A stretch of 64,000 nucleotides of DNA from a virus (Duplodnaviria > Caudoviricetes): the IMG/VR virus record IMGVR_UViG_3300021399_003927, positions 65,492 to 129,491 of that record. One strand, 5' to 3'. A model generated the notes under the pieces. The model saw nothing but the letters and a program-made list of their open reading frames with translations. It made no database searches and was not told where the DNA came from. Within the stretch, counting starts at the first letter, position 1, and each line of letters starts with the position of its first letter. Positions 552-24,892 of the stretch are shown here, in pieces. Made by a program: the position numbers and the translations under genes.

Positions 552-878
552 TTAAAGTATCTCCACAACTTTACCATAGATTTGATTTCTACCTACCCAT
601 CCATTCATATGACCATGATTGTTACCAATTAGGTACTCACTATCATTCTTAATGGCATGGATTAGATGCAAATAATGATGACCTCTAACCTTACATAATA
701 CAATGTCCTTTTTGTTAAGTTTAGTGTCATCTTTCACAGGTTCGCATATAACTGCTTGCCTTGATTTCAAAATAGGTGTCATAGAATTACCAATTCCAGT
801 CACCTTACATGTTTCACCTGCTCTCAGATGGTTGCATGTCTCTTGGTTTTCAAAACCACTATAAGTAAAATCTCTCAT
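552..878 (-). CDS. Peptidase S24/S26-like small protein
   Basis: GNSMTP serine motif, DIV, HLIH and GNN motifs typical of the S24/S26 fold. Confidence 0.65.
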   Translation of the reverse strand: MRDFTYSGFENQETCNHLRAGETCKVTGIGNSMTPILKSRQAVICEPVKDDTKLNKKDIVLCKVRGHHYLHLIHAIKNDSEYLIGNNHGHMNGWVGRNQIYGKVVEIL

Positions 879-897
879 AATAAAAAAAGTTTACTTG

Positions 898-1021
898 CAG
901 GGACTGATGGACTCGAACCACCATTGTTCATTAACAGTTAAAGGCGTAATCTGTTCCGCAGTCGAGACTACGTTAATTCCTTAAGACGTAACAAACCACT
1001 TTACCATTAAGCTAAATCCCT
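898..1021 (-). ncRNA. tRNA-like RNA (Asn-like) with about 50-nt insertion in the anticodon arm
   Basis: Acceptor AGGGATT/AGTCCCT+G, normal D and T arms, extended stem GTTTGTTA/TAATGAAC, CTGTTAA just before the 3' strand. Confidence 0.7.
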
Positions 1022-1035
1022 ATATAAATATACAA

Positions 1036-1820
1036 AAGACTGAGAATGTTGTCTTATTGTTGATGCCATCACACAACGGTTGGACGTTGCTCTTCACACG
1101 CTGCCTTACAGCAGACGTAGACACCATGCACGATGATTTTGCGAAAACCACCCAAAAAACTTACTAGTTTAAACCTCTCGGTGCAGCATCATAGCTTTCA
1201 GTTCTTCGCCAAGCTCTTGCGGATTCATAGGATGCCTCCTATTAACTCAGACGAGTACTTTTACACGCTCATTGAATTCCTTGCGAGTCCTCAATGTCTT
1301 CATATTGCAGAAGAATAAGTGCATTTTAGCTGCCTAGTGTCGCACACTTTTGCTACTCTAAAAACTGTTTGAACCTTATTTCAAATTTTTTAAATTCCGC
1401 TGACCTTGGAAGACGAGGTGCGACCCATCGCATTCGTACCTTTTGAGTACGACCCACGAAATCGCCTTCCTACAAAGACTCACCACAAGTCCAATTGTTG
1501 TTATCTGCTATCAGCCTTACGGTTCTCACGCCTTTCAGCGCAAGACTAGCGAATAACTAAACCCAACACGCCAACTGGTGATTATTGCATCGAGTTCAGC
1601 ACAGTAATCTATTGTGTCACCACTCATCCAAAGACTCCTCACCCTTGGAAGCCTACACCTATGGTGTTACCCACGATGTAGACAGTACCATGCTCTTTTC
1701 AGTGAAATGCCTCAGTCACCCAAGACATCTGCAACGCTACTTGGTCAATTTCACGCCACATTTATCCTATTACTAGATTATCCTTAATGGCTACGAAAGC
1801 TAGCAAAACCCCTTGCGAGA
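1036..1820 (-). ncRNA. GOLLD-like large structured RNA (~780 nt)
   Basis: GC-elevated, no credible ORF, many hairpins with GNRA loops (GCAA, GAAA, GTAA), GTACTCAAAAGGTAC hairpin, ends ...ATTCTCAGTC-TTTT, lies inside a phage tRNA array; boundaries approximate. Confidence 0.55.
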
Positions 1821-1825
1821 TTCGT

Positions 1826-1935
1826 TGGTAAGAAGAGATTTGCACTCTTGAAGCCTCCGAAGAGGCACATCAAGCACGAACTTGATGCCCATTTGTCTAC
1901 ATCAGTCTCTCGACTGTTCTCCTCTGGTACTTACC
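1826..1935 (-). ncRNA. tRNA-scaffolded RNA with bipartite guide loop, copy 1
   Basis: Acceptor GGTAAG/CTTACC, T arm AAGAG-TGCAAAT-CTCTT, V arm GCCTC-TTCG-GAGGC; D arm replaced by CCA[GAGGAGAA]CAGTC-GAGA-GACTG[ATGTAGACAAA]TGG. Confidence 0.8.
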
Positions 1936-1972
1936 AAAAGGTGGTTTTTCAATTTGTCCACCACAAAATAGT

Positions 1973-2079
1973 TGGTAGAGCTAGATTTGCACTAGCGAAG
2001 CTACCTAAGTAGCACAATACTTACCGTATTGCCGATTTGTCTACATCAGCCTTGCGACTGTTCTCCTCTCGTATCTACC
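1973..2079 (-). ncRNA. tRNA-scaffolded RNA with bipartite guide loop, copy 2
   Basis: Same fold as copy 1 with compensatory stem changes; identical GAGGAGAA / ATGTAGACAAA loop strands. Confidence 0.8.
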
Positions 2080-2086
2080 AAATGAG

Positions 2087-2159
2087 TAGCGGCAGAAGGA
2101 TTTGCACCTTCGAGACTCTAGGTTATGAGCCTAGCATGATACTACTTCACCATGCCGCA
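2087..2159 (-). tRNA. tRNA-Met(CAT), initiator-like
   Basis: CTAGG-CTCATAA-CCTAG; 1-72 mismatch (T:T); A73. Confidence 0.85.
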
Positions 2160-2173
2160 ATGTTAAAAAATAA

Positions 2174-2249
2174 GGAAACGTGCTCAGAATGCGACTTTTT
2201 GTTTTTTCAAGAAACATTTACATACTTAAGTTAGTTGCTGTACGTTTCC
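2174..2249 (-). ncRNA. ACAGCAA-stem RNA 1 (short, no tRNA cargo)
   Basis: GGAAACGT-ACAGCAA ... ACGTTTCC. Confidence 0.75.
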
Positions 2250-2287
2250 ACTATTCTATGGATTTTATTATCTTTTTTCCAACTGTG

Positions 2288-2319
2288 CAAAGATATATAT
2301 TTTTTTTCTAACTTCCAAA
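2288..2319 (-). promoter_or_regulatory. Bacteroidetes sigma-A-type promoter (one of about 20 in the window)
   Basis: TTTGG(-33) ... TATCTTTG(-7). Similar sites near 2612, 4230, 6279, 12854, 13681, 14938, 20109, 24631, 26227, 29777, 30600, 34117, 35227, 39297, 41704, 43285, 45109, 50672, 53120, 57362. Confidence 0.85.
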
Positions 2320-2323
2320 TTTT

Positions 2324-2590
2324 TTATGAACTTTTTTCAGCTTTTTTGAAAAATTCTTTCAACTTGGTCAATTCTGCAAGTTGGAAGGTGTATTCATCAG
2401 CACTGATTATCAATTCATCTTTATCTTCTTCAATGCTAACAATCTGTGCCTTTAGCTTTTCAATAAGGCTTGCTTTTAATGCCTCACGATACTTGACGCT
2501 AACTATATTAGTAGCTTCACCTTTACTGTATCCAGCATCACATAAGTTTTTATACAACTCGTTTCTAAACTCTTTGTCTAATATTTTCAT
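2324..2590 (-). CDS. Hypothetical protein
   Basis: 88-aa ORF downstream of a promoter motif, phage-like composition. Confidence 0.7.
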   Translation of the reverse strand: MKILDKEFRNELYKNLCDAGYSKGEATNIVSVKYREALKASLIEKLKAQIVSIEEDKDELIISADEYTFQLAELTKLKEFFKKAEKSS

Positions 2591-2644
2591 AACCGTTTTG
2601 TTTTTAACAGTGCAAAGATATATAAAATATTTGAAACTTCCAAA

Positions 2645-2896
2645 TTATTTATGAACTTTTTTCTTAAAAATCACAATTTCTTTTGATTTTTCCCATATAG
2701 CCCATCCCATCATCACAAAAAAGGCAAATATCATAAATATTAGCACAAGCCAAGATAATGTACAACATATCAAAGCAGCAATGATGTCAGATAGCCTAAT
2801 TTCATCAATTCGGAGTTTTTCACTTCTATCACATCGTACTAGTAGAACTAATAGAAATGCAACAAAGCACCCAATAAGATAAATTGTCATAACCAT
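2645..2896 (-). CDS. Hypothetical membrane protein
   Basis: Two hydrophobic segments. Confidence 0.65.
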   Translation of the reverse strand: MVMTIYLIGCFVAFLLVLLVRCDRSEKLRIDEIRLSDIIAALICCTLSWLVLIFMIFAFFVMMGWAIWEKSKEIVIFKKKVHK

Positions 2897-2916
2897 TTGT
2901 CCATCAATTTGTTAAG

Positions 2917-3274
2917 TGGAGCTAGAGTGAATCGAACACTCGTCCATACTACCATCCCATAAGAGATTACACAAGCTTTAAAATTGGAAAGTTGACATTG
3001 CTGTCCTCACCGCCACCTCATTTTGCGAAAACGAGGAAAACTAGGGGGATGACTAGAGTCATCAGTCCACCATTCGGTTTCAAAAAACCGACAAAAAGTT
3101 GCATGGATGTTCTGTTCCTAAGAGCCATGCCTCTCGGCTCACATTACGCTGCTACAGCGTACTCGTAAGCAGGAGAATCAACATTCTCGCCGTTTATATT
3201 TTTTTGCTATTTCTAGTGTATGCCCACTGCTTGTCTCTTACCAAATGTATAGCTGTCTATACCATTGTAGCCCC
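2917..3274 (-). ncRNA. ssrA: tmRNA, tag peptide GENVDSPAYEYAVAA (3144-3191)
   Basis: 5' GGGGCTA...GAC, 3' T arm + TAGCTCCA with G3-U70; resume codon after ATAAAC; tag ends AVAA*. Confidence 0.93.
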
Positions 3275-3301
3275 ATTATGTCAAAGAACTCTTTCTTATT
3301 G

Positions 3302-3378
3302 TCGAGACGGCAGGAGTTGAACCTGCGTGTGACCTACTACACTTTCTACTCCTTATCAGGGAGAGGTGATACGTCTCG
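3302..3378 (-). tRNA. D-armless tRNA-Ile(GAT)-like RNA with long variable hairpin
   Basis: CGAGACG/CGTCTCG+A; 8-nt linker in place of D arm; CTCC-CTGATAA-GGAG; GTG-TAGTAGGT-CAC in variable region; normal T arm. Confidence 0.7.
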
Positions 3379-3381
3379 CTG

Positions 3382-3591
3382 TTATAAAAATACTGTTTTA
3401 GCCTTGCTTAAAAATTCATCCACATTACCATTAAAAGTGAAACTATTACCTCCTACTCTAATATAGGTTTTTTCTTCACCATCACGGTTTTTATAGTCAT
3501 AAATATAATTTATATCAGCTTTTCTAAACAAATTTTTATGACCATCTGGATTAGTTATTTCCAAAAACGAATTTGTATAATCGTAATTCAT
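3382..3591 (-). CDS. Hypothetical protein
   Basis: 69-aa ORF. Confidence 0.6.
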   Translation of the reverse strand: MNYDYTNSFLEITNPDGHKNLFRKADINYIYDYKNRDGEEKTYIRVGGNSFTFNGNVDEFLSKAKTVFL

Positions 3592-9539: not shown

Positions 9540-10340
9540 TTAAATATTTTGCAAATTGTTTAATATATGTTCTTTCCAATAATTTCTTCTAGTGCTGTTT
9601 TTATTTTTTGACTTAAATGTGTCTAACTGACTATCACAATTAGGACATATCATCCGCAAATTTTCTCTTTTGTTGTTAGAAGCATCACCATCAATATGGT
9701 CTAGTACAAATACTAACGGTTTACCATTATGTTCTGGTTTACCTCCACATATTGGGCATATACCACCTTGTTCCTTTAAGAATTCTTTTTTAAAAGCTTT
9801 TGGTGTATAATTTCCTCTACAGTATTTATTGTTATTTTCTAGAAAATCTTTATAAGATTCTCTATGCCTATGTTCTGCAACACATTTTTCAGAACAATAT
9901 TTAGCATCTTTTACTGTAGTTTCAAAATATTTTCCACAAACAACACATTTTTTTGTATATTTAATTAATTTCTTTTCTTTTTTAATGTGTTCTTTTTTCG
10001 TTTTCTTTAACTTACTAGCAATACCATCATAAACAGATTTATCCCTATGTTCATTGTTATACTTCGCAGCACAAGAACGGCAACAAAATTCCTTACCCCA
10101 TTTATTAGTAATTTCTTTTCCGCATTGCTTACAATATTTAATTATTTTTTTCTTTTTATAAGTATCTAAATCAAATCCAACTGACGTTGCAATTTCTTTC
10201 AAATATTCAGAACCTTGTTTATTATCGCTTATTCCGAAATATTCATGTGCTTGATTTTTGCTAGTAAAACTATCAAATTTATCAAAGACCTCTTTCTTTT
10301 TTTCTTCTGTACTAATGTCAATAATCTTTCTTTTCCTCAT
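9540..10340 (-). CDS. HNH homing endonuclease with Zn-ribbon repeats
   Basis: LDHIDGDASNNKRENLRMICPNCDS; several CxxC motifs. Confidence 0.9.
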   Translation of the reverse strand: MRKRKIIDISTEEKKKEVFDKFDSFTSKNQAHEYFGISDNKQGSEYLKEIATSVGFDLDTYKKKKIIKYCKQCGKEITNKWGKEFCCRSCAAKYNNEHRDKSVYDGIASKLKKTKKEHIKKEKKLIKYTKKCVVCGKYFETTVKDAKYCSEKCVAEHRHRESYKDFLENNNKYCRGNYTPKAFKKEFLKEQGGICPICGGKPEHNGKPLVFVLDHIDGDASNNKRENLRMICPNCDSQLDTFKSKNKNSTRRNYWKEHILNNLQNI

Positions 10341-10983: not shown

Positions 10984-12054
10984 CTATTTCTTGTCAAATA
11001 TCACCCCATCTGGTAAATCATTGTCTACCACTTTCTTCTCCTTGTAGTAGTCCAAATAGGCATTTCCATCGTCATTGATGATGTATTCGATGCCTCTTGA
11101 ATATTCATAGGTAGATGCAACACCTTGCAGCATAAAGAAGAAAAATCCATCCTTATCTACTAGTCGCAACCAATGGGAATCATTTGTATTTTCCTCTTGT
11201 ATGATTTTGTACTTGTCCGTTGCCTTTACCTTTTCTATGTATTTGTTGAAAGTTGGGGCAAACTTACCAGTTGCACAATCACCTCTGAAACGAACAGATT
11301 CAAACCCTATTTTCTTAGCCCATTCGACAAAATTCTCAACGAATGTAGGAAAGTTCTCAATTTCCTTATACACAACACTCACTGCTGATGTTGTTATGTT
11401 TCTGTCAAGAAGCTGTACTATCAAGCTAGTAAGCTCTTCGTCTGTCGGAATTCTCCAAGTGTTAAATATCTCTCTTCGTGCATCTAAATTATAATGATGA
11501 ATTGAAATATTTACATAGTTAACCACGCCAATTAATGAATCTAAAACTTCATTCAGCTTATATCCATTTGTGGTAAGGGTCACTCTGTTAATTTTATCCA
11601 ACCATTTAGAGTTTTTTAGCCTCCTTAACACTTTCCTTAACAAGTCTGGATTGAACGTTGGTTCATTTCCAGTTATGTCAAGACTAATTGGCTGTTTGCC
11701 GTATACTCTATCAACCACATCGCCAAGAGAATCAATAAATCTGCTCAAGAATAAGTCATAGTCATGCTCCATGTTCTTATATCCGTTCATAAAACAAAAC
11801 TCACACTTTGCTTGGCAGAAAGATGGGATTATCAACTTAATTGAAACCACATTCTCATAGTCAACTCTTACGTTGTAATTGTCAAGTACCCATAAATGCC
11901 ATTTTGCAGCATTCACAACATTTTCATTCTCATGCTTTAGAAGAGATTCAACATAACCTCTGTCCAAGGTAAAATCCTTTTTCAGCTTATGGTATATGTC
12001 TGTCCATTTCTCCCTTTTGTGTTCTAAAATTGTCTTTTTGACATCTTTCCACAT
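10984..12054 (-). CDS. Radical SAM protein
   Basis: CQAKCEFC (CxxxCxxC), TGNEP, TTNG, NISIH. Confidence 0.9.
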   Translation of the reverse strand: MWKDVKKTILEHKREKWTDIYHKLKKDFTLDRGYVESLLKHENENVVNAAKWHLWVLDNYNVRVDYENVVSIKLIIPSFCQAKCEFCFMNGYKNMEHDYDLFLSRFIDSLGDVVDRVYGKQPISLDITGNEPTFNPDLLRKVLRRLKNSKWLDKINRVTLTTNGYKLNEVLDSLIGVVNYVNISIHHYNLDARREIFNTWRIPTDEELTSLIVQLLDRNITTSAVSVVYKEIENFPTFVENFVEWAKKIGFESVRFRGDCATGKFAPTFNKYIEKVKATDKYKIIQEENTNDSHWLRLVDKDGFFFFMLQGVASTYEYSRGIEYIINDDGNAYLDYYKEKKVVDNDLPDGVIFDKK

Positions 12055-17309: not shown

Positions 17310-17867
17310 AGCGAGTGAACGGAATCGAACCGTCATATTCAGCTTGCTTACCACACTATGTTACCATAGCCAAACAAATGCTTCCCTTTCAAGGCATATT
17401 TAACTCTTCTAAGCTCATTTGTCTGTTGTAGTCTGGAATACATCTTTACCATATTGAAATTCTTGCAAGATATATTTGAACATTCTTCCTCTTCTTTTTC
17501 CCAATAGGCTCTATATATTACGCAAAGAGTTGTACGCTATTATCCTCTTGGCAAGTTCAAATATAAATTTCAACTTAGGTATCTCCTATATACTCTCTAC
17601 ACATTTATGAGAATAAACTATTGGTTAAATAGACTTACTTACAAGGTTTTTCCTTTTCTTGTACCTATTATTCTCAATTTAGCACGGTATTATCCTTCCC
17701 CATTATTGTTTAGGAGGCACTGATAGTCTTATACAGTACGATTTATTATTATACTACTCGTAAGGACTTCCACCGTTTTAGGGAGATTCTACTATGGGAT
17801 TTCTCGCCATAGCACTTCATTTTCAGTCCTTTGGAGGGCTGACATTCTACCATTGAACTACACTCGC
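17310..17867 (-). tRNA. tRNA-Gly(TCC) interrupted by a group I intron (exons 17834-17867 and 17310-17346)
   Basis: Joined exons give TCAGC-CCTC|CAA-GCTGA, GCGAGTG/CACTCGC+U73. Confidence 0.85.
17347..17833 (-). mobile_element. Group I intron (487 nt) at tRNA position 35/36
   Basis: Core near-identical to the Arg intron; terminal G; exact 5' splice site inferred. Confidence 0.82.
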
Positions 17868-18015
17868 TTGGTGAACTAACTTAGTGATGTTCCACAAATG
17901 TATTTTATGAACACATATATTTAATGAAAAGACAAGAACATCTAGTTTGGTATTAGTTCGTGAGCTGTTTACTTTTCGCAGCAACCGTTTATCTAACTAC
18001 CTACTTTGCAGAAAT

Positions 18016-18031
18016 GAGGAGAATGTAGACA
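18016..18031 (-). promoter_or_regulatory. Putative target site of the guide-loop RNAs
   Basis: TGTCTACATTCTCCTC is complementary to GAGGAGAA+TGTAGACA and overlaps the ATG of an 11-aa ORF (17997-18032). Confidence 0.5.
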
Positions 18032-18106
18032 TTTGATAGTCGATAAACTTGCGGTTTTAACGATTCACCGCCAACGCCTTATTTTTTAGTATTCTCCTAA
18101 AACTCT

Positions 18107-21306: not shown

Positions 21307-21419
21307 GGAATCCTTTAAACTAAGGTAGGTAGGGAGTCGAACCCTAATCTCTTGGTAAAATCCAAGGCTCTACCATTGAGCTACCCATCTGGAGTTTTTA
21401 CCTTATGCTGCAAGATTCC
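21307..21419 (-). ncRNA. RCAGCA-stem RNA 9 enclosing a non-permuted tRNA-like body
   Basis: GGAATCTT-GCAGCAT ... full cloverleaf with 6-nt loop ATTTTA ... GGATTCC. Confidence 0.72.
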
Positions 21420-23846: not shown

Positions 23847-24587
23847 TCAACTCTCCTTTATTGCAGATTCTTTTTCTACGGCATCTATAGTTGATGTAAC
23901 CTCTTTCAAACAACTAAAGAAGCCACTCCACCACATACCATAACCCTTAGAATGTAATGGGTACTCTTCTTCTTCGTGTTCAAGAACATACTTAGCCTTC
24001 ACAATTAGAGGCAGCAGAGTAGCACCATCAGTCTTCTCGCACTTGACAGCAATCACCTTGCCACCACGCTGAACCATACCGAACACAGGTGTCTTGGTCT
24101 TGGTTGAACGACCTTGAGTTCCTGGTGTGCGTCTGCTCTTGTGCTTGTTATTCTCTCTACCACCGATGTAAGCCTCGTCACACTCAACATCACCCTCAAG
24201 GGCGATAGTGTCATCTTGTGCGAACAGAGTTCTAATCTTCTGTAGGATGAACCAAGCGGTCTTCTGAGTCACGTCAATGTCTCTTGCAAGCTGATGGCTG
24301 CTGATACCCTTCTTGTGAGAAGAAATCAGATACATCGCCATAAACCACTTGCGAAGGTCAATCTTGGTGTTATTGAATATTGTACCAACCTTCTCACTAA
24401 AGTTCTTGTGACAGTTGGAACAACAGAAACGACCATCGGCTCTCTTGTGGCAATGGTGCTGACCGCAGTGAGGGCATACGACATCATCACCCCAACGAGA
24501 CTCAACGAGGGCTTGTTGGCATTTTTCCTCAGTGTTAAAGTAGGTAGCCACTGAGTACAGCGAATTGAATTTACTGAAATTAATCAT
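23847..24587 (-). pseudogene. Truncated IS1595-family (ISXO2-like) transposase fused to an unrelated ORF tail
   Basis: Zn ribbon RWG..VCPHC, HTH ISSHQLARDIDVTQKTAW, VECDEAYIGG; recognisable transposase sequence stops at LLPLI (~24001), before the later catalytic motifs. Confidence 0.8.
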
Positions 24588-24892
24588 AATGTCTCTAATA
24601 TATTTTATCCGTATCTTATTTATCTGTGTGCAAAGATACGAAAAATATTTGAGAAAAACAAATTTTTCAGCAACTATTTTCAGTCTGTACCTCATTTTTA
24701 GCTTATTTTATATCTTTTTGTAGCCAACAAGTATATCGTTACCTTAATTTTTCTATTTCATTTATTTATTATCGTCATAACAACACGGATATGGACATTT
24801 CACCCTTAATGCTCTATCACGCCCATCACAAGGGTTACAAGAGCATGCGTCACAACGTTTCTTCCATCTTTCATTATATTCATCCATAATAC

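Follow-up and report, generated by a model that had tools for sequence, protein, structure and literature searches.

A family of tRNA-derived, probably non-decoding RNAs in huge rumen phages with an invariant D-loop pocket complementary to a second phage RNA

Results

Organization of the locus

The window, i.e., the whole stretch of 64,000 nucleotides analyzed here, belongs to a huge rumen phage and carries on its minus strand two tRNA-derived RNAs with the type II cloverleaf and its long variable arm (Table 1). All 26 tRNA and tmRNA genes called by ARAGORN in the window are on the same strand. The ordinary tRNA(CAU) which opens the array has the UGCAAAU T loop, U1, A73 and C74 in common with the two tRNA-like RNAs, and includes a U1xU72 mismatch. 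TAnnTTTG is the consensus of the -7 element in Bacteroidota; on its own the motif shows no enrichment, with 97 matches in the window versus 84 +/- 8 in shuffled sequences. As a side observation, part of positions 1000-3300 is indexed in 15 RNA runs, at the level of an index match only.

Downstream of copy 1 is a large RNA which the Rfam GOLLD model (RF02032) matches over 1037-1470 with 73.7 bits (E value 1.5e-18; model coverage 1-416), below the gathering score of 150 that none of the ten related loci reaches either. Over its whole length this RNA shares 70-84% identity across 11 loci, and it fits GOLLD as described in PMC12286853, i.e., about 800 nt, phage-borne, and beside tRNAs. The same source (Kretsch et al. 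2025) places GOLLD near tRNA islands, with env-38 downstream of a Met-tRNA and tRNAs within the GOLLD linker. The distance between the last tRNA-like RNA and the aligned GOLLD-like region is tens of nucleotides in at least seven loci and about 150-400 nt in L009, L014, L026 and L038. The 124-nt type of tRNA follows the GOLLD-like RNA in the window as well as in all ten related loci scanned.

Table 1. Positions of the features of the window that are discussed in the text
Feature	Coordinates	Strand	Basis and remarks
124-nt tRNA with ~50-nt insertion	898..1021	-	Rfam tRNA 38.8 bits; 3' of GOLLD-like RNA
GOLLD-like large RNA, 794 nt	1030..1823	-	starts ~10-20 nt after copy 1
tRNA-like copy 1 (type A)	1824..1936	-	model R1, 131 bits; fold and alignment
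D-loop pocket of copy 1	1892..1924	-	GAGGAGAA, CAGUC-GAGA-GACUG hairpin, AUGUAGACAAA; pattern match; strands predicted unpaired
Spacer between copies	1937..1970	-	leader hairpin GGUGG...CCACC, then UUU; from sequence
tRNA-like copy 2 (type B)	1971..2080	-	model R1, 117.9 bits; fold
D-loop pocket of copy 2	2036..2068	-	GAGGAGAA, CAGUC-GCAA-GGCUG hairpin, AUGUAGACAAA; pattern match and fold
tRNA(CAU), first of array	2087..2159	-	ARAGORN; Rfam tRNA 55.4 bits
TATCTTTG box of promoter-like repeat	2288..2295	-	proposed start of the tRNA(CAU)/tRNA-like/GOLLD-like unit
Partner non-coding RNA, ~165 nt	17936..18103	-	kept in 5/5 related genomes; alignment A4, 11 unique sequences
Predicted target site UGUCUACAUUCUCCUC	18016..18031	-	complementary, without a gap, to AUGUAGACA and GAGGAGA(A); in partner apical loop
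AGGAGAA, partner 5' end	18092..18098	-	same letters as tRNA-like 5' loop strand; able to pair internally with UUCUCCU in the partner loop
OmpA-family ORF, 340 aa	18107..19129	-	Pfam OmpA, E value 4.6e-11; N terminus signal-peptide-like

Structure of the two tRNA-like RNAs

The original prediction had proposed two RNAs which keep their stems by compensatory changes and have no real anticodon. The stems and the changes are real in both copies. Minimum-energy folds are cloverleaves (z-scores -3.0 and -3.4) with an acceptor stem of 7 bp, a D stem of 3 bp, a stem at the anticodon position, a variable arm of 5 bp, and a T stem of 5 bp; the T loop is UGCAAAU and the 3' end AAC in both. Copy 1 has the acceptor UGGUAAG/CUUACCA, a variable arm, and an extended anticodon-position stem topped by a UUCGUG hexaloop, and here the absence of an anticodon holds. 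It does not hold as plainly for copy 2 (acceptor UGGUAGA/UCUACCA), whose 7-nt loop CGGUAAG presents GUA at the anticodon position, though with G rather than U at position 33.

The D loop of each copy consists of GAGGAGAA, a GNRA-capped hairpin and AUGUAGACAAA. As had been noted, the two strands are identical between the copies, and the folds predict no pairing of one strand with the other. This bipartite pattern occurs twice in the window and never in 100 shuffled sequences. The 3' part of the spacer between the copies (AAAAACCACCUUU) is found again directly 5' of many members of the family described below.

Neither ARAGORN nor the Rfam tRNA model (RF00005; detection threshold 29 bits), at the gathering score or at E values up to 10, calls a tRNA in 1824-2080, and the Rfam covariance model of C4 has no match in 700-3500 at E values up to 10. 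Three other readings of the sequence were set aside or gave little. On the plus strand the folds are weaker, and many G.U pairs are compatible with the minus strand alone; for a D-loop intron, no bulge-helix-bulge is seen, and type A copies have no anticodon anyway; and inspection of the pocket by eye gave no convincing match to a K-turn or loop-E motif.

Members, covariation and loop constraint

A covariance-model search, as the original prediction had proposed, was carried out with a model designated R1 and gave 56 matches of 67-135 bits; in viral contigs, 27 of 41 loci retrieved by pattern contain members, corresponding to 40 unique sequences. In all, the family comprises 134 unique sequences from huge rumen phages of 240-415 kb. 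Covariation supports all six helices, with double-sided changes in 26 of 33 pairs of the family-wide alignment, and 97.8% of cells form pairs versus 75.5% in shuffles, none of 500 shuffles reaching the observed value. Among prokaryote genomes, 45 stretches fit the pattern, none of which the model matches as a prophage or host copy.

The constraint on the loop was measured without using the D loop, i.e., on members fetched by a pattern of the anticodon arm and T loop. Both D-loop strands are present in all 21 viral loci found in this way. In metagenomes the same pattern yielded 142 matches to the model, or 118 unique sequences. Both strands are in canonical form in 102 of these, and the core GUAGAC is present in all 118; free variation of the strands among homologues, which the original prediction had named as an argument against recognition, is thus not what is observed. 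Of 131 members, 129 terminate in AAC at the 3' end. Genomes contain three to five paralogues which differ in their acceptor and anticodon-position arms, and in each complete genome there is also a solitary copy distant from GOLLD. These RNAs constitute a new and well-supported family of tRNA-derived non-coding RNAs that is missed by standard tRNA and Rfam searches.

The putative partner RNA and its predicted target site

A sequence-recognition role for the conserved strands had been suggested, together with a scan for TGTCTACA(T)TTCTCCTC. This pattern is found once in the window, without the optional T, on the strand of the tRNA-like RNAs and inside a conserved non-coding RNA (Table 1), which supports the role in the form of a predicted target. 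The 14-nt core of the site, GUCUACAUUCUCCU, is unchanged in all 11 unique homologues, while both flanks vary, and it recurs in the divergent L171 (12/12). Each of five genomes has a single site, with no match to the reversed control; the site is always on the strand of the tRNA-like RNAs, 16-17.5 kb upstream of their array, and all six contigs longer than 200 kb with a tRNA-like RNA also have the partner. By our estimate (a 16-mer, four gap options, 128 kb), the chance expectation is about 1e-4.

The partner RNA consists of a 5' AGGAGAA, a hairpin P1, a long stem P2 with the target in its apical loop, and a conserved 3' domain. In P2, 18048-18035 pairs with 18001-17987, with double-sided changes in 6 of 14 pairs and nine G.U cells compatible only with the minus strand. 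An Rfam search with this RNA returned no match, and its predicted stability is no better than that of shuffled sequences (z -0.39). The 5' AGGAGAA is present in 10 of 11 homologues and reads GGGAGAA in the remaining one and AGGAGGG in L171; in the minimum-energy fold of the partner alone, it pairs with the target. The stop codon of the OmpA-like ORF is directly 5' of the partner RNA, and the site is within the tRNA island.

Relatives were missed by the exact target pattern because their site ends in U, not C, and their partner homologues were found by similarity instead. The exact pattern TGTCTACA(0-3 N)TTCTCCTC matched 55 stretches in viral contigs, none of them in family-bearing contigs, and these are read as chance level. 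A one-mismatch site in G010 (GTCTACGTTCTCCT) is in an unrelated intergenic region with no partner homologue. Two other complementarities were also rejected: CUGUCUACAUC at 1675-1685, in the 5' half of the GOLLD-like RNA, is complementary to the 3' loop strand, is missing from the GOLLD-like RNAs of all the other loci and is attributed to chance, and pairing of the UUCGUG hexaloop with CACGAA of the partner 3' domain would be possible in no more than about 7 of the 11 homologues of the partner. Separately, AACGGUUG of the partner is an 8-mer complement of a GOLLD hairpin in six of eight genomes and is lost in two; about two such matches per pair would be expected by chance.

Predicted pairing

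Minimum-energy co-folds of tRNA-like and partner contain 7+9 intermolecular pairs flanking the D hairpin. The predicted energy is -81.7 kcal/mol for copy 1 with the partner versus -70.4 for the separate RNAs, and -78.2 versus -66.7 kcal/mol for copy 2; the intermolecular pairing would displace the AGGAGAA:UUCUCCU helix within the partner. Co-folding was used in place of duplexfold, which on the full RNAs returned meaningless long-range pairings. Natural variants of the pocket are mostly compatible with pairing: AUGUGGAC gives G.U, AAGGAGAA gives A-U with the U present in the sites of relatives, and GUGUAGAC gives G.U or a junction nucleotide. A few paralogues, in the minority, have mismatches beside the junction (AGGUAGAC, ACGUAGAC, GCGUAGAC and GAGUAGAA). 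There is no covariation between the tRNA-like RNAs and the partner, both sides being invariant in every lineage found, and the pairing is therefore deduced from complementarity. Together, the D-loop pocket and the partner loop point to a new pair of RNAs that would bind each other near the GOLLD-like RNA.

Discussion

Comparison with known systems

The original prediction had likened these RNAs to C4 of phages P1 and P7 and to H/ACA guides, and both likenesses stand as analogies. C4 too is a phage-encoded small RNA of tRNA-like or cloverleaf shape, with two segments complementary to a target of the same phage. According to PMC5320573, RNase P frees C4 from a longer transcript, and C4 binds its target with complementary segments in two different loops, a' and b'. 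In the tRNA-like RNAs, by contrast, a single D-loop pocket supplies both guide segments, one on each strand, for a contiguous target rather than two loops for two sites. An entire type II tRNA, variable and T arms included, serves as the scaffold, there are several paralogues per genome, and the predicted target is the loop of a non-coding RNA 16 kb away, whereas that of C4 is a ribosome-binding site just downstream. In keeping with the lack of a match to the Rfam C4 model, the bipartite complement at 18016-18031 shows a C4-like way of working, as read from the predicted pairing, and not membership of C4. A 5' end made by RNase P would be in keeping with the acceptor stem and T arm.

No H/ACA particles are known from bacteria or phages. 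As in an H/ACA pocket, internal-loop strands below a hairpin would pair with a single target strand; the parallel ends there, since the target would be paired contiguously with no unpaired nucleotide in the pocket, whereas an H/ACA pocket leaves the target U and one neighbor free. Furthermore, neither a hairpin-hinge-hairpin nor an ACA box is seen, the 3' end being AAC.

YrlA, which Ro60/Rsr binds, is a non-coding tRNA mimic that is in some cases encoded by phages and located near tRNAs. For jumbo phages, PMC7824862 mentions a ROT/TROVE protein whose partner is tRNA-like. None of five genomes with the present family matches TROVE/Ro60 (PF05731), while control genomes do; moreover, the 5' and 3' ends form an acceptor stem rather than a Ro-binding stem, and there is no Rfam match. 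The tRNA-like RNAs are not members of the C4, H/ACA or Y-RNA families.

Among known arrangements of RNAs, MALAT1/mascRNA offers an analogue of a tRNA-like module beside a long non-coding RNA. With GOLLD and its linked tRNAs the likeness is that a tRNA-shaped element adjoins a large structured RNA, and tRNA-processing enzymes could therefore set the ends of the large RNA. What sets the present RNAs apart is that they form a family of their own, non-decoding, whose pocket is invariant and has a dedicated complementary RNA, and that solitary copies away from GOLLD occur as well.

Proposed interaction and alternative explanations

In our judgment the two RNAs probably belong to a family of small phage RNAs that derive from tRNAs, do not decode, and dock on a partner RNA by means of their D-loop pocket. 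We infer the first and last of five steps; the three between them are drawn from sequence complementarity and predicted thermodynamics. In the first step, the tRNA-like RNAs would be co-transcribed with tRNA(CAU) and the GOLLD-like RNA. They would probably be processed like tRNAs because the acceptor stem, the T arm and the tRNA core are kept, RNase P and RNase Z presumably excising them and CCA being added as for tRNAs. The enlarged D loop would then constitute a two-strand pocket around the GNRA-capped hairpin, in which AUGUAGAC(A) on the 3' side and GAGGAGA(A) on the 5' side would pair with the contiguous (U)GUCUACAUUCUCCU(Y). About 16 intermolecular base pairs would thus form with the apical loop of the second phage RNA, as a junction around the D hairpin. 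Because the 5' AGGAGAA of the partner can pair with the UUCUCCU half of its own site, we propose that the free GUCUACA half serves as a toehold, after which the tRNA-like RNA would displace the internal helix. Finally, several paralogous tRNA-like RNAs may dock on one hub site, the candidate outcomes being that the partner transcript is controlled, that the tRNA-like RNAs are titrated, or that a larger RNA complex assembles.

Conservation of the strands might instead have its cause in cis or in a protein, the complementarity to the partner being without function; the strands would then build a special tRNA elbow with the unusual UGCAAAU T loop or a structured motif to which a factor of the phage or the host binds. 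In one copy a T loop of the canonical type, UUCAAAU, occurs together with GUGGAC in place of GUAGAC, and where ordinary tRNA(CAU) genes have the UGCAAAU T loop, their D loop, AGUAGUCAAA, resembles that of the family. Because the two loops change together and the tRNA(CAU) D loop is similar, the T loop may be a docking site for the A-G of GUAGAC, so that the 3' strand would probably have a cis role in part; binding of the partner would then need the elbow to be opened. Invariance on two sides without covariation suits a constraint other than pairing, and the GNRA loop in 68 of 70 14-nt D hairpins is typical of tertiary docking. A special elbow would explain few nucleotides, however, against 8+11 invariant letters, and a 14-16-nt complement that is invariant in 12/12, single-copy, on the same strand and exposed in a loop is very unlikely by chance. 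We therefore regard an exclusively cis-acting or protein-bound role as unlikely.

Nor do we think it likely that the RNAs are mainly modules for the processing or architecture of the GOLLD-like RNA, whose 5' end RNase P and RNase Z would set or to whose cage they would stay attached, the D loop and the partner being secondary. In all 11 loci with a GOLLD-like RNA, the last tRNA-like RNA is upstream of it on the same strand; in five homologues (L005, L014, L038, L040 and L042) a tRNA is found within the GOLLD-like linker; and the proximity of GOLLD and tRNAs is as described in PMC12286853. Against this are the solitary copies away from GOLLD in each complete genome, the one in G004 coming with a promoter-like box and a terminator of its own, and the fact that two to five copies are not required for tRNA punctuation, and neither is an invariant pocket matched by a conserved complement. 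Lak megaphages, moreover, have a GOLLD-like stretch of 69-70% identity with no tRNA-like RNA within 4 kb of it or in either of two whole genomes.

Derivation from tRNA-Tyr could also mean that the RNAs are working tRNAs or aminoacyl carriers, type B decoding or accepting an amino acid and type A being charged independently of the anticodon and donating off the ribosome. As in a type II tRNA such as tRNA-Tyr, there are a 7-bp acceptor stem, U8/A9, a 3-bp D stem, a long variable arm, a 5-bp T stem, a 7-nt T loop, and A73, the 3' end AAC is nearly constant, and some copies, of type B, have GUA at the anticodon position. The metagenome member L186:3505-3614 is the sole one with the loop CUGUAAA of the phage's ordinary tRNA-Tyr, and a gene for a CCA-adding-type nucleotidyltransferase is present in 5/5 genomes. 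The departures are an expanded D loop that reaches about 33 nt and includes an inserted hairpin, the T loop UGCAAAU, and an anticodon loop that is a hexaloop or has G33 or C33: position 33 is G or C in the majority of type B loops, and a 7-nt loop is absent from type A. Neither ARAGORN nor the Rfam tRNA model accepts any of the copies, a normal tRNA-Tyr already exists in the complete relative G004, and the complementarity to the partner would be left unexplained, all of which makes a role in decoding or aminoacyl transfer very unlikely. Scarcely credible is a ribosome decoy or minimal start-stop frame, in which GAGGAG as a Shine-Dalgarno-like element and a hairpin bringing AUG-UAG near can be read in the sequence, but natural copies have AGG, ACG, GCG or GUG for AUG and UGG for UAG, ACAAA is kept beyond the supposed frame, and the partner site is not accounted for.

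Significance

Many tRNAs are found in large phages, as is the enigmatic GOLLD RNA, a cage former with a solved structure. In the main texts of the literature on GOLLD and on tRNA-like or antisense RNAs of huge phages we found no description of the present family; GOLLD alignments in the supplementary files may show such elements labeled as tRNAs. The D loop of a tRNA rebuilt as a two-strand antisense pocket would, as far as we know, be without precedent. Docking of the tRNA-like RNAs on a partner RNA, as predicted from sequence, would be a specific RNA-RNA interaction open to study with simple transcripts and compensatory mutants, and the fixed genomic link to the GOLLD-like RNA provides GOLLD research with a candidate co-factor or cargo system. 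In a bolder reading, which we consider improbable, the tRNA-shaped modules would be cargo-recognition arms of a natural RNA nanocage: attached to the GOLLD-like transcript or co-assembled with it, their D-loop clamp would capture, by toehold strand displacement, one specific phage RNA, the partner loop at the 3' end of the OmpA-like/tRNA-precursor transcript. If this were true, GOLLD would gain a sequence-programmed means of RNA loading or tethering.

Structure of the tRNA-like RNAs and of their family

Both tRNA-like RNAs fold as cloverleaves, with z-scores of -3.0 (copy 1) and -3.4 (copy 2). Each has a 7-bp acceptor stem with U1-A72 as its first pair, then U8 and A9, a D stem of 3 bp and a further stem at the anticodon position. 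The variable arm and the T stem both have 5 bp, the T loop is UGCAAAU, and the 3' terminus is AAC, with CCA not encoded. Read 5' to 3', the D loop consists of GAGGAGAA, a 5-bp hairpin with a C-G closing pair and a GAGA or GCAA cap, and AUGUAGACAAA. Pairwise alignment bore out the compensatory stem changes and the identity of the single D-loop strands described in the original prediction, and the window has two occurrences of the bipartite D-loop pattern, against none in 100 shuffles. The region 1824-2080 is not called by ARAGORN and has no Rfam match at the gathering score or at E values up to 10. The absence of a real anticodon, claimed for both RNAs, needs qualifying: in copy 1 a UUCGUG hexaloop lies atop an extended stem, and the 7-nt loop CGGUAAG of copy 2 has GUA in the anticodon place, though with G33.

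The family and its fold are supported by computation. A scan of viral contigs with the bipartite pattern returned 41 stretches, 27 with tRNA-like genes and 14 that are chance matches in unrelated sequence. In an alignment of 40 unique full-length sequences, 97.8% of cells are paired under the proposed structure, as against 75.5% in shuffles, and double-sided changes occur at 26 of 33 pairs; none of 500 shuffles reached the observed values, and pairing falls to 34-44% when the partner columns are slid. With the tRNA-like covariance model, R1, 56 matches score 67-135 bits across the window and the 27 loci; the 16 further matches, none above 34 bits, are ordinary tRNAs. Tandem arrays contain up to five members, with three copies per genome in complete genomes and five in one that is 75% complete. 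What sets paralogues apart is the acceptor stem and the arm at the anticodon position, which has either a UUCGUG hexaloop or a YGGUAAR loop; the same genomic position keeps the same acceptor across phages, e.g., UGGUAAG/CUUACCA in the GOLLD-proximal copy. The D hairpin varies freely by covariation, with a GNRA cap in 68 of 70 14-nt hairpins, and it tolerates large additions, since two metagenome members carry an 83-nt insertion there. The 3' end is AAC in 129 of 131. The family is not described in the literature searched; supplementary GOLLD alignments may include these elements.

Constraint on the D-loop strands

Because the first scan had required the loops, retrieval was repeated with a pattern comprising only the anticodon-position arm and the T loop. 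In viral contigs this pattern found 21 loci, all with the D-loop strands, and added just the locus L118 and a further copy in L042. The metagenomes gave 114 stretches, 80 of which were examined and yielded 142 R1 matches and 118 unique sequences. Both strands are canonical in 102 of the 118, two truncated ones counted. Variants are AAGGAGAA with ...ACAAC (nine sequences, one of them truncated), GAGGAGAAA together with GUGUAGAC (two), AGGUAGAC (one), and single other changes in four (GAGUAGAA; GCGUAGAC; ACGUAGAC; GAGGGGAUA with GUGUAGAC). Variation is restricted to hairpin-adjacent positions and the outer ends, and all 118 sequences keep the core GUAGAC; free variation of the strands among homologues, which would have told against the prediction, was not seen. 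The pocket formed by the two strands is under constraint.

Genomic setting

The source record is 129 kb (CheckV completeness 44%), of which the window is the second half; complete relatives measure 295-413 kb. ARAGORN places 25 tRNAs and a tmRNA in the tRNA island of the window, all on the minus strand, and Rfam counts 27 tRNAs and the tmRNA. The closest GenBank phages are Prevotella Lak megaphages, with 69-70% identity limited to part of the GOLLD-like RNA. Transcription units are preceded by a repeated promoter-like element with TATCTTTG at its end; TAnnTTTG is the Bacteroidota -7 box, but the bare motif shows no enrichment here, with 97 matches in the window vs 84 +/- 8 in shuffles. A Bacteroidota host can therefore reasonably be inferred, rather than counted as a result.

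The genomic link between the tRNA-likes and the GOLLD-like RNA is fixed. The match to Rfam GOLLD spans the model from end to end and scores 73.7 bits (E value 1.5e-18), short of the 150-bit gathering score. Across 11 loci the whole GOLLD-like RNA retains 70-84% identity and always shares its strand with the tRNA-likes, downstream of the last of them. The gene order is promoter-like box, tRNA(CAU), two to five tRNA-likes, GOLLD-like RNA and a 124-nt tRNA with an insertion. A tRNA lies within the GOLLD-like RNA, in the linker, in five loci, and tRNAs in GOLLD linkers are described by Kretsch et al. (PMC12286853). Each complete genome also has one solitary tRNA-like copy elsewhere; in the complete relative G004 this copy is accompanied by a promoter-like box of its own and by the same leader hairpin, as well as by another odd tRNA-like and a strong terminator. 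In Lak phages the GOLLD-like RNA is present and the tRNA-like was not found in two whole genomes.

Positions of features (in the window unless a locus or genome is named)
Feature	Position	Strand	Remarks
124-nt tRNA	898-1021	-	~50-nt insertion in anticodon region, perhaps an intron; trails GOLLD-like RNA in window and all 10 related loci scanned
GOLLD-like RNA	1030-1823	-	794 nt
Rfam GOLLD match	1037-1470	-	
tRNA-like copy 1	1824-1936	-	
Leader hairpin	1937-1970	-	GGUGG...CCACC then UUU; immediately 5' of tRNA-like; also precedes many family members; may be a processing signal, a terminator for the preceding unit or another element
tRNA-like copy 2	1971-2080	-	
tRNA(CAU)	2087-2159	-	1x72 mismatch, UGCAAAU, A73-C74
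tRNA(CAU), related genome	G000:C1:65290-65372		as preceding row
tRNA(CAU), related locus	L013:901-983		as preceding row
tRNA(CAU), related locus	L016:2618-2699		as preceding row
tmRNA	2914-3274	-	tag peptide GENVDSPAYEYAVAA; near-identical tag in relatives
HNH-endonuclease-like ORF	9540-10340	-	below Pfam cut-off; within tRNA island
Radical SAM ORF	10984-12054	-	within tRNA island
tRNA-like 5' half	17700-17870	-	GCGAGUGUAGUUCAAUGGUAGAAU..., then long insert; downstream of partner
Partner RNA	17936-18103	-	~165 nt, non-coding
Target site	18016-18031	-	
tRNA	21322-21390	-	2-nt 'anticodon' (tt) per ARAGORN; kept in G004 (L303:4827-4898)
IS1595-family transposase ORF	23847-24695	-	within tRNA island
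Second tRNA-shaped RNA, G004	L003:5440-5520	-	immediately 3' of solitary tRNA-like; non-canonical; acceptor UGAUAGG/CCUAUCA; T loop canonical; 3' end AC; odd anticodon loop CAUCUAA; not called by ARAGORN; sequence also after solitary copy in L018, L022, L037, L041
tRNA, G004	L301:19272-19363		92 nt, anticodon CUA (amber suppressor); ARAGORN label Pyl
Member with UUCAAAU T loop	L013:3014-3128		
Members with 83-nt insertion	L213:1032-1213; L219:3305-3486		metagenome

Probable ancestry and probable role in cis

The unusual T loop UGCAAAU is common to the tRNA-likes, the tRNA(CAU) of the window and the 82-83-nt tRNA(CAU) genes of relatives; the variable arm of the latter is long, which is unusual for a Met or initiator tRNA. 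The tRNA(CAU) genes of this type, with AGUAGUA or AGUAGUCAAA as D loop, are the best-scoring ordinary tRNAs under R1 (28-43 bits), and the tRNA-like scaffold probably evolved from them. An origin from tRNA-Tyr is suggested by the type II architecture, A73 and the GUA of the 7-nt loops, and the loop CUGUAAA of the ordinary tRNA-Tyr of G004 recurs in one metagenome member. The full tRNA set of G004 includes tRNA-Tyr and a CUA suppressor, and the tRNA-likes are therefore not needed for decoding. In this clade, some genes may use TAG as a sense codon. A CCA-adding-type nucleotidyltransferase is encoded in five of five genomes.

A T loop of canonical type (UUCAAAU) occurs in just one family member, which also has GUGGAC; this single co-change suggests that the A-G of GUAGAC may replace G18-G19 at the tRNA elbow. 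Part of the pocket is likely to act also in cis. If A-G docks at the elbow, the free RNA would be L-shaped, and binding of a partner would have to open the elbow.

A putative partner RNA and its predicted pairing

A conserved, single-copy, exposed complement of the pocket is present in a second conserved RNA. The target foreseen in the original prediction, UGUCUACAUUCUCCUC, is the complement of the joined strands and occurs once on the strand of the tRNA-likes, where about 1e-4 matches are expected by chance (estimated for a 16-mer, four spacing options and 128 kb). It is located in a non-coding stretch which starts just past the stop codon of an OmpA-family ORF and is kept at 77-85% identity in five of five related genomes. 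Two further homologue scans, one of which did not use the site, gave 13 loci with 11 unique sequences including the window. The 14-mer GUCUACAUUCUCCU is unchanged in all 11, with flanking nucleotides that vary on both sides, and is retained in a divergent homologue, L171 (on the contig of L030), whose 3' domain shows the compensatory change GCUG/CAGC to ACUG/CAGU. In five genomes the 14-mer occurs exactly once (reversed control, 0); in each case it shares its strand with the tRNA-likes and precedes the array by 16-17.5 kb. The partner is present in all six contigs above 200 kb that carry a tRNA-like. The tRNA-like 5' half downstream of the partner is called by neither ARAGORN nor Rfam, and could belong to a tRNA that contains an intron.

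In the RNAalifold structure the site lies in an apical loop of 33-38 nt that caps P2, a 14-bp stem with double-sided changes at six pairs and nine G.U cells compatible with the minus strand only. The stability of the whole RNA is no better than that of shuffles (z -0.39), and the partner, for which there is no Rfam match, is modestly structured, with a single well-supported stem. Of the 11 homologues, 10 have AGGAGAA at the 5' end and one has GGGAGAA; L171 has AGGAGGG there, and all three variants are able to pair with UUCUCCU; in the minimum-energy fold of the monomer, 5' AGGAGAA pairs with the UUCUCCU half of the site.

In the minimum-energy co-fold of either copy with the partner, GAGGAGA is predicted to pair with UCUCCUC and AUGUAGACA with UGUCUACAU. 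The D hairpin lies between these two intermolecular helices, so that with the D stem the complex would be a four-helix junction. The co-fold energies are -81.7 kcal/mol for copy 1 and -78.2 kcal/mol for copy 2, compared with -70.4 and -66.7 kcal/mol for the separate RNAs, which makes the modelled complex thermodynamically plausible. The natural pocket variants are mostly compatible with such pairing. The variant AUGUGGAC would form a G.U pair with the site, AAGGAGAA an A-U pair with the site-terminal U of relatives, and GUGUAGAC is accompanied by an extra A on the opposite strand; a few (AGGUAGAC, ACGUAGAC, GCGUAGAC and GAGUAGAA) would lose one pair near the junction. Covariation between tRNA-likes and partner was not found among the homologues compared, which is the main gap in the case for pairing; slow change of pocket and site would itself be expected, because several paralogues would dock on one site.

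Among known systems, the C4 RNA of P1/P7 is by analogy the closest functional counterpart, being described as a cloverleaf-like phage RNA that is excised by RNase P and binds its target through two loops (PMC5320573). Membership in C4 fails because the tRNA-likes do not match the C4 model, and the geometry is different. The suggested likeness to H/ACA guides did not survive, as the predicted pairing lacks the unpaired target nucleotides that define them and the tRNA-likes lack the ACA box. Identity with the Y-RNA-like YrlA was rejected, as a Ro60/TROVE protein was found in none of five genomes.

The AGGAGAA of the partner has the same letters as the 5' strand of the tRNA-like, and nucleation followed by displacement would therefore be the simplest mechanism: the free GUCUACA half of the site would nucleate pairing with the tRNA-like, which would then displace the internal AGGAGAA helix of the partner. 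That such pairing serves the loading of GOLLD cages seems to us improbable; we lean, with some reserve, towards pairing of the two RNAs inside infected cells.
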